Origin: Escherichia coli
Lineage (GTDB): Bacteria > Pseudomonadota > Gammaproteobacteria > Enterobacterales > Enterobacteriaceae
NCBI RefSeq assembly: GCF_036507355.1
Contig: NZ_AP027877.1
Reading direction: 5' to 3' (one strand)
DNA length: 64,000 nt
Below the pieces are notes generated by a model that had not been told where the DNA came from, ran no database searches, and worked only from the letters and a program-made list of their open reading frames with translations. Positions 34,136 to 34,607 of this stretch are shown in pieces (the first letter of the stretch is position 1; each line of letters opens with the position of its first letter). Position numbers and translations under genes: made by a program.

Positions 34136-34607
34136 TGCATCTCCAGAAATCATGAAGGAAACGTCGTTCATATCGGTGGTGTTAATTACAGATATCACGC
34201 CCTTTAATTTGGAAATAAAACTTTAATCACCAATATTGAAAATGTCACACGCAGATAAATCCAACTTTAAATATTGTTAAGTTCCTCACCAATATTGAAA
34301 ACATGGCGTAGCAAAAAGAAATTTTCAATATTGTTTTATAGATCACCAATATTGAAAGTCAGATGCTATTTTTTTACCCACAAAAGAACATAACAAACTG
34401 ATTAATAACAAAAATTAACGGAAAAACGTCCTCTATTCACCCGAAACAAAAATGTGACACCAATCACAGAACACAACTTATTGAATACCCATTATGAGTT
34501 AGCCATTAACGCATCCACGAGGTTAATAATAATTATATTAAATGTTAACAAAAATAAAACAAACGGGAACGCAAAATAAATATTCGTTTTCACAGTGGAA
34601 TTAACTC
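34136..34607. promoter_or_regulatory. Divergent cai / fix control region (anaerobic, carnitine-responsive promoters)
   Basis: AT-rich 472-bp spacer between divergent fixA and caiT; contains three direct copies of tcaccaatattgaaa. Confidence 0.7.

Follow-up and report, generated by a model that had tools for sequence, protein, structure and literature searches.

In Escherichia coli K-12, CaiF is described as binding two sites, F1 and F2, each composed of 11-bp inverted repeats 13 bp apart (PMC12083890 and PMC3680233, both citing Buchet 1999). The site is given as 5'-TTTCAATATTG-N13-CAATATTGAAA-3' in section 3.2 of PMC12083890 and in the discussion of PMC3680233, and binding of purified CaiF to the K-12 sites is reported by the same two papers on the basis of Buchet 1999. 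Transcription of caiF is activated directly by FNR (PMC3688515), the CaiF effector is crotonobetainyl-CoA (PMC12083890), and separate CRP molecules serve the divergent promoters of cai and fix (PMC3105977). GrlA, a member of the same Pfam family as CaiF, is described in PMC4856446 and PMC3130263 (the latter for Islam 2011) as a MerR-like activator that works on the -10/-35 spacer DNA of the ler promoter.

The window analyzed here is the whole stretch of 64,000 nucleotides (64 kb). The repeats under study lie between fixA and caiT, in the divergent cai-fix control region of E. coli, and both the open reading frames and the RefSeq annotation of matching genomes agree with the first-pass annotation on this point. 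The control region was matched in 5,394 of 5,426 complete E. coli genomes, with 90–99% identity and between annotated fixA and caiT, and its alignment with K-12 MG1655 gave 98% identity. The product of caiF scored 28.5 bits against Pfam family PF07180 (CaiF_GrlA; cut-off 25). Coordinates of all features are collected in Table 1.

Table 1. Features of the cai-fix control region and its genes, in window coordinates.
Feature	Position	Strand	Sequence, match or basis
fixA	33365..34135	-	ORF, ATG at 34135; RefSeq annotation of matching E. coli genomes
Predicted fix core promoter	34220..34248	-	GTGACA (34248-34243)-17-TAAAGT (34225-34220); consensus scan, 9/12
Copy 1, unpaired CaiF-type half-site	34227..34241	+	TCAC + CAATATTGAAA (34231-34241); exact match
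CaiF site nearest fixA	34266..34300	+	TTTAAATATTG (34266-34276)-N13-CAATATTGAAA (34290-34300); centre 34283
C>A in left arm of CaiF site nearest fixA	34269	+	TTTA vs TTTC; TTTAAATATTG for TTTCAATATTG
CRP-like core	34275..34290	+	TGTTAAGTTCCTCACC; TGTTA-N6-TCACC, 8/10 to TGTGA-N6-TCACA; centre 34282.5
CaiF site further from fixA	34323..34357	+	TTTCAATATTG (34323-34333)-N13-CAATATTGAAA (34347-34357); centre 34340
CRP-like core	34332..34347	+	TGTTTTATAGATCACC; TGTTT-N6-TCACC, 7/10; centre 34339.5
CRP site 1, perfect core	34453..34468	+	TGTGACACCAATCACA; 10/10; centre 34460.5, implies cai start near 34502
caiT	34608..36122	+	ORF, 504 aa; RefSeq annotation of matching E. coli genomes
caiF (CaiF regulator, 131 aa)	41844..42239	-	ORF; PF07180; placed as in K-12

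The 15-mer TCACCAATATTGAAA was found exactly at 34227-34241, 34286-34300 and 34343-34357 on the + strand, with start-to-start distances of 59 and 57 bp, so that the three evenly spaced copies reported from first inspection were confirmed by exact matching and by shuffling. No further exact copy was present elsewhere in the 64-kb window, where, a REP element aside, no other 15-mer reached at least three exact copies. A triplicated 15-mer was obtained in none of 200 block shuffles. When up to three mismatches were allowed, the window contained nine matches to TCACCAATATTGAAA, against an average of 2.15 over 100 shuffled versions (maximum 8), and five of the nine fell within the 131 bp of 34227-34357. 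Two of these matches, at 34266-34280 and 34323-34337, were on the opposite strand.

The partial inverted copy noted earlier near 34325 proved to be TTTCAATATTG at 34323-34333, complementary to CAATATTGAAA at 11 of 11 positions; a repeat finder paired the two perfectly, with 13 nt between them (partner at 34347-34357). A second inverted copy, overlooked at first reading, was found 13 nt before copy 2 (TTTAAATATTG at 34266-34276, 10/11). The region thus holds five half-sites in the order > < > < > (the signs denoting orientation), four of them perfect and one matching at 10/11. The palindromic core attributed to the repeats was also recovered, as CAATATTG in the half-sites and as AAATATTG in the mutated arm.

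When compared with the window, the published CaiF consensus was matched at exactly two places, 34323-34357 (no mismatches) and 34266-34300 (one mismatch), with none expected by chance. Copies 2 and 3 of the 15-mer form the right arms of these two matches, and are therefore identified with the right half of each known CaiF site. Judged from sequence, the 15-mers are the caiT-facing arms of the published CaiF operator array, with copies 2 and 3 lying one in each of F1 and F2, at a probability of roughly 0.9. This is in line with the initial proposal that the repeats are regulator sites with CaiF as a binder, which here appears as the main one. The working unit is, however, an inverted repeat of 11-bp arms and not a set of three direct repeats, as first described, since only copies 2 and 3 have inverted partners.

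Compared with F1 and F2 of K-12 (Buchet et al. 1999, Mol Microbiol 34:562, as presented in PMC12083890 and PMC3680233), the window shows the same locus with the arrangement TTTCAATATTG-N13-CAATATTGAAA occurring twice. All five half-sites are identical between the two strains except for one base, a C>A change at 34269 in the window strain, where K-12 has a perfect TTTC arm. Copy 1 is a lone half-site, and the summaries in PMC12083890 and PMC3680233 make no mention of it as a CaiF site.

The substitution at 34269 breaks the perfect symmetry of one CaiF site. Each of the eight further Escherichia sequences in the alignment has the C, the closest genome (99.1% identity over 551 bp) among them. Among 5,426 complete E. 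coli genomes, 3,552 contained an exact match to the C version of 34250-34305 and none to the window's own version. The change is apparently private and reflects either a mutation confined to this strain or an error of sequencing. As Citrobacter and Pseudocitrobacter also have single mismatches in this left arm, the substitution is probably tolerated.

The half-site centres lie at 34236, 34271, 34295, 34328 and 34352, and paired arms are 24 bp apart from centre to centre. Successive direct copies are separated by 59 and 57 bp, corresponding to 5.6 and 5.4 helical turns, and are 154–223 degrees out of phase. The earlier claim of a common helical face was wrong, since neighbouring copies at such distances lie on roughly opposite faces. 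Copies 1 and 3 are the only pair in phase (116 bp, 11.05 turns).

In copies 2 and 3, TCAC and the first C of the CaiF half-site form TCACC, the right half of a CRP-like site, and the TG closing the left arm supplies the start of the same nested core. The repeat measures 15 nt rather than 11 because the TCAC belonging to the CRP right half precedes the CaiF arm. The nested cores overlap the CaiF arms at their outer bases. Within the region, CRP site 1 alone matches CRP better than these cores, which are weak, at 7–8/10 in the window and 6–8/10 across species. The suggestion of CRP as the binder was partly right: it holds for the TCAC(C) of copies 2 and 3 as the right half of a nested core. At copy 1, the best overlapping CRP core, TATTGAAAATGTCACA, had a poor left half and reached 7/10; the one ending in the TCACC of copy 1 itself reached only 6/10.

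The cai and fix transcription starts are reportedly 289 bp apart, and CRP site 1 is said to lie at -41.5 of cai, with sites 2 and 3 at -69.5 and -126.5 of fix. Placing the perfect core accordingly gives a cai start at 34502 (34460.5 + 41.5) and a fix start at 34213. If the fix start is 34213, a value derived from these reported figures, the nested centres fall at -69.5 and -126.5, n.5 positions whose helical face suits activation, and we take the core at 34275-34290 to be CRP site 2 and that at 34332-34347 to be CRP site 3. Because the four numbers fit the coordinates exactly, this assignment was judged secure enough. In comparison with CRP sites 2 and 3 of fix as reported by Buchet et al. (1998, J Bacteriol 180:2599), the cores of the window have their centres at the same two distances from the inferred fix start, are weak (8/10 and 7/10), and form part of a 15-mer that combines a CaiF arm with a CRP right half.

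On the same placement, the two CaiF sites are centred at about -70 and -127 relative to the inferred start of fix and at about -219 and -162 relative to that of cai. At melAB, MelR and CRP form a co-dependent array in which CRP is bound between sites of the specific activator. The cai-fix arrangement is similar in that a CRP-like site is flanked by two binding elements of an activator specific to the pathway, with both proteins required. In contrast to melAB, where the activator belongs to the AraC family, the activator here is of the CaiF/GrlA family, and the CRP-like core lies within a single palindromic operator.

For comparison across species, one genome per species was scanned with CaiT, yielding 80 loci. 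Upstream of caiT, five half-sites in the order > < > < > were observed in Escherichia, Citrobacter, Salmonella, Pseudocitrobacter, Phytobacter and Intestinirhabdus, and three (> < >) in Yokenella, Pluralibacter, Trabulsiella, Atlantibacter and two further Enterobacteriaceae. Proteus carried seven (> < > < > < >) with a 59-bp period, the array being found by TRF. A single close > site was present in Hafnia, Edwardsiella, Serratia, Limnobaculum and Leminorella, and two direct > copies in Budvicia. In Shewanella, Campylobacter, Ferrimonas and others, no close match was found upstream of caiT.

The number of full CaiF sites was accordingly one in Yokenella, Pluralibacter and Trabulsiella, two in Escherichia, Citrobacter and Salmonella, and three in Proteus, and the position of the array was syntenic across more than ten genera. 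In Providencia the array recurs, with the orphan arm kept and the arms further on degraded. The earlier view that the architecture is conserved and probably not novel is well borne out, as the array recurs in many genera and the published CaiF consensus is matched. In Proteus mirabilis, TRF reported 2.3 copies with 78% matches. It is suggested that the operator array grows and shrinks by duplication of a unit.

Across 24 aligned sequences of the five-site group, identity to the window was 0.96–0.99 for the half-sites, 0.88 for the arm carrying the private change and 0.51–0.77 for the spacers; the AT-rich 95 bp between the last arm and CRP site 1 were conserved at 0.51. Position-frequency tables were compiled for three classes of arm (41 orphan, 81 right, 81 left), and each class showed 86–100% conservation of the core CAATATTGAA. 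TCA(C) preceded orphan and right arms at 97–100%, with C as the fourth base in 100% of orphan and 69% of right arms, and was missing before left arms. This pattern of arm conservation is a clear phylogenetic footprint of function.

Copy 1 was considered separately. The repeats had been placed between the divergent promoters, but this does not hold for copy 1, which sits inside the fix core promoter predicted by consensus scan. That scan returned one promoter-like site on the fix strand, with +1 near 34213, which agrees with the start derived from the CRP sites, and copy 1 occupies -14 to -28 from the inferred fix start, almost exactly the promoter spacer. A cryptic left arm was sought at 34207-34217 and rejected, as aatttggaaat matches at 2 of 11 positions only. 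Having no inverted partner, copy 1 was not filed as a full CaiF site.

Copy 1 is nevertheless identical to the paired copies at 15 of 15 positions, is 0.99 conserved in the 24-sequence alignment, and is present in 41 of 42 array-bearing species. In Escherichia, most Citrobacter, Salmonella, Pluralibacter, Yokenella and Proteus, 91–92 nt separate its first base from the fixA ATG. The figure is 89–95 nt in Trabulsiella, Atlantibacter RC6 and Providencia rettgeri/vermicola, and a small number of loci fall further outside, such as C. sedlakii with 78 nt. Its separation from caiT is far less constant (-230 to -505), as is the number of full sites (one to three). A constant distance to fixA combined with a variable distance to caiT and a variable number of sites indicates that the fix promoter is the anchor of the array. 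The module TTCAATATTGGTGA-N4/5-GGTTTTATTT, read on the fix strand, was invariant or nearly so across these array-bearing genera, and in the single-site genera it recurs with GGTATTATTT. On comparative sequence grounds, the orphan arm is the most constant element of the array, and copy 1 is probably functional, a probable CaiF contact through which the array would be tied to the fix promoter.

Transcription of cai, 289 bp away, reportedly requires a 50-bp sequence that overlaps the start of the fix mRNA. Copy 1 lies next to or within such a segment and could be the required sequence.

The octamer AATAAAAC at 34214-34221 (GTTTTATT on the fix strand) lies 4–5 nt from copy 1 and is 0.99 conserved. 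It is kept from Escherichia to Providencia (L015, L024, L025, L031, L036, L068 and other loci), and Hafnia, Edwardsiella and Serratia carry GGTATTATTT at the GTTTTATT position. It could be either a separate site or the actual -10 element of fix. As an alternative -10 element, GTTTTATT may move the start about 5 nt further on, which would place copy 1 at about -19 to -33.

The strongest competitor to a functional copy 1 is that it is a leftover from duplication of a unit of about 58 bp, retained as spacer and -35-proximal DNA of the fix promoter, with only copies 2 and 3 serving as regulator sites. The missing inverted partner 13 bp upstream favours this explanation, as do the naming of just two CaiF sites in PMC12083890 and PMC3680233 and the duplicated appearance of the region (51-nt units 73% identical at 57-bp spacing, together with the Proteus mirabilis repeats of 59-bp period). 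Conservation is, moreover, high (0.90) all the way from the fixA ATG to copy 1, and that of copy 1 could be partly due to constraint on the fix core promoter itself.

However, promoter spacers are normally weakly constrained, yet all 15 positions of copy 1 match a CaiF/CRP-type arm. In 41 species these positions were 92–100% conserved, except for the 11th base of the half-site (63%), and the conservation held also in genera in which the -35-like GTGACA is not conserved. In Hafnia, Edwardsiella, Serratia, Budvicia, Limnobaculum and Leminorella, TCACCAATATTGAA followed by GGTATTATTT is the only site type kept, which argues for an ancestral core rather than a relic. A relic origin of copy 1 was accordingly regarded as rather unlikely, and a functional half-site is preferred.

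A functional copy 1 could, in a more specific and quite tentative form, be an undescribed third CaiF contact, the ancestral and most strictly conserved element, with CaiF acting directly on RNA polymerase or on promoter geometry in the manner of GrlA and the upstream F sites being accessory. The ancestral module would then be TTTCAATATTGGTGA-N4/5-GGTWTTATTT on the fix strand, inside the core promoter. At P1 of EHEC/EPEC LEE1 (ler), GrlA acts between the promoter elements, and copy 1 likewise lies between the predicted -35 and -10. In contrast to MerR/GrlA spacer operators, which have a non-optimal spacing of 18–20 bp, the predicted fix spacer has the optimal 17 bp, its hexamers being a consensus match only. 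The documented CaiF sites are, unlike those of GrlA at LEE1, far-upstream inverted repeats, and the likeness is one of resemblance only. As the predicted spacer is already 17 bp long, the GrlA analogy is only a lead.

It was considered very improbable that the repeats are primarily sites for CRP, FNR or another global regulator, with CAATATTG as incidental AT-rich sequence. CRP action in the region is known (PMC3105977, PMC3680233), TCACC matches the CRP right half-site at 4 of 5 positions, and the nested 16-mers score 7–8/10. However, the most conserved part is the 11-mer CAATATTGAAA, which occurs in both orientations outside the CRP core and matches the published CaiF consensus exactly, while the left CRP half varies freely (TGTTA, TGTTT, TGCTA, TGCCA and others) and is lacking at copy 1 (TAAAA). 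The FNR family, also named at first as a possible binder, was not supported: no FNR core (TTGAT-N4-ATCAA) with up to three mismatches overlapped 34227-34357, and the best FNR-like cores were located at 34398-34411 and downstream of 34411.

That the repeats are non-functional, arising by chance, tandem duplication or as a mobile-element remnant, can be practically dismissed: the AT-rich intergenic region (69% A+T) and the duplicated-unit structure would allow it, but about 4e-6 extra copies of TCACCAATATTGAAA are expected by chance in the 472-bp intergenic region, and both the syntenic position in more than ten genera and the conservation pattern already contradict it. A tandem repeat or mobile element was also rejected on direct search, TRF being negative in 34100-34650 and TCACCAATATTGAAA occurring nowhere else in the window; TRF finds no array here because the spacers have diverged and the arms have not.

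With the 15-mers taken as arms of the CaiF operator array, regulation most likely follows the published mechanism. CaiF is produced under anaerobiosis and activated by a carnitine-derived effector. The protein, probably as dimers, occupies the two 35-bp palindromic sites, with cAMP-CRP on the nested weak sites and on the strong site 1. CaiF and cAMP-CRP together co-activate the fix and cai operons, the cai promoter additionally using the perfect CRP site 1 at -41.5. The AT-rich 95 bp from the last arm to CRP site 1 may form a flexible linker through which cai is reached from afar, and the orphan arm may tie the complex to the fix core promoter.

The main feature is already known regulatory architecture, published in 1998–1999, and its recovery from raw sequence indicates that a first-stage reader can spot real operators. 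A literature search yielded no CaiF ChIP-exo, SELEX or DAP-seq data, and a full-text search for the motif strings returned only a 2025 biosensor paper. The position-locked orphan half-site and the variation between one, two and three sites are small additions, not found in the accessible literature. Together with the private C>A, they may be of use for CaiF-based carnitine biosensors and for studies of divergent promoters.

Several minor observations were made in addition. Beside CRP site 1, the 30 nt at 34431-34460 are 70% identical to the copy 1 region (TTCACCCGAAACAAAAATGTGACAC compared with ATCACCAATATTGAAAATGTCACAC). A fourth direct copy at this position was rejected, as the 15-mer has six mismatches and conservation is low; the similarity is probably due to chance or an old duplication.

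In Proteus species (P. mirabilis L031, 1992-2124; also L027-L034 and L047), three full CaiF-type sites and the orphan arm follow a strict 59-bp period. In Budvicia (L048), two direct perfect copies of ATCACCAATATTGAAA were located 27 bp apart, at -396 to -355 from caiT, and the inverted arm was absent beside them. A perfect TTTCAATATTG was observed about 15–25 nt upstream of the fixA ATG in Leminorella (L022, about -681 from caiT) and Limnobaculum (L043 and L051, about -653), and a 10/11 copy lay about 40 nt upstream of caiT (about -49 in Limnobaculum). These copies near fixA and caiT represent a different architecture, the single > site of these genera lying about 230 bp away.

The sequence CGCGTCTTATCAGGCCTAC occurred in four exact copies, at 5307-5325 on the - strand and at 10684-10702, 17764-17782 and 37324-37342 on the + strand. 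We take it to be a sequence of the REP (repetitive extragenic palindrome) type. The copy at 37324 stands directly past the ORF at 36153-37295, which is the ORF after caiT.
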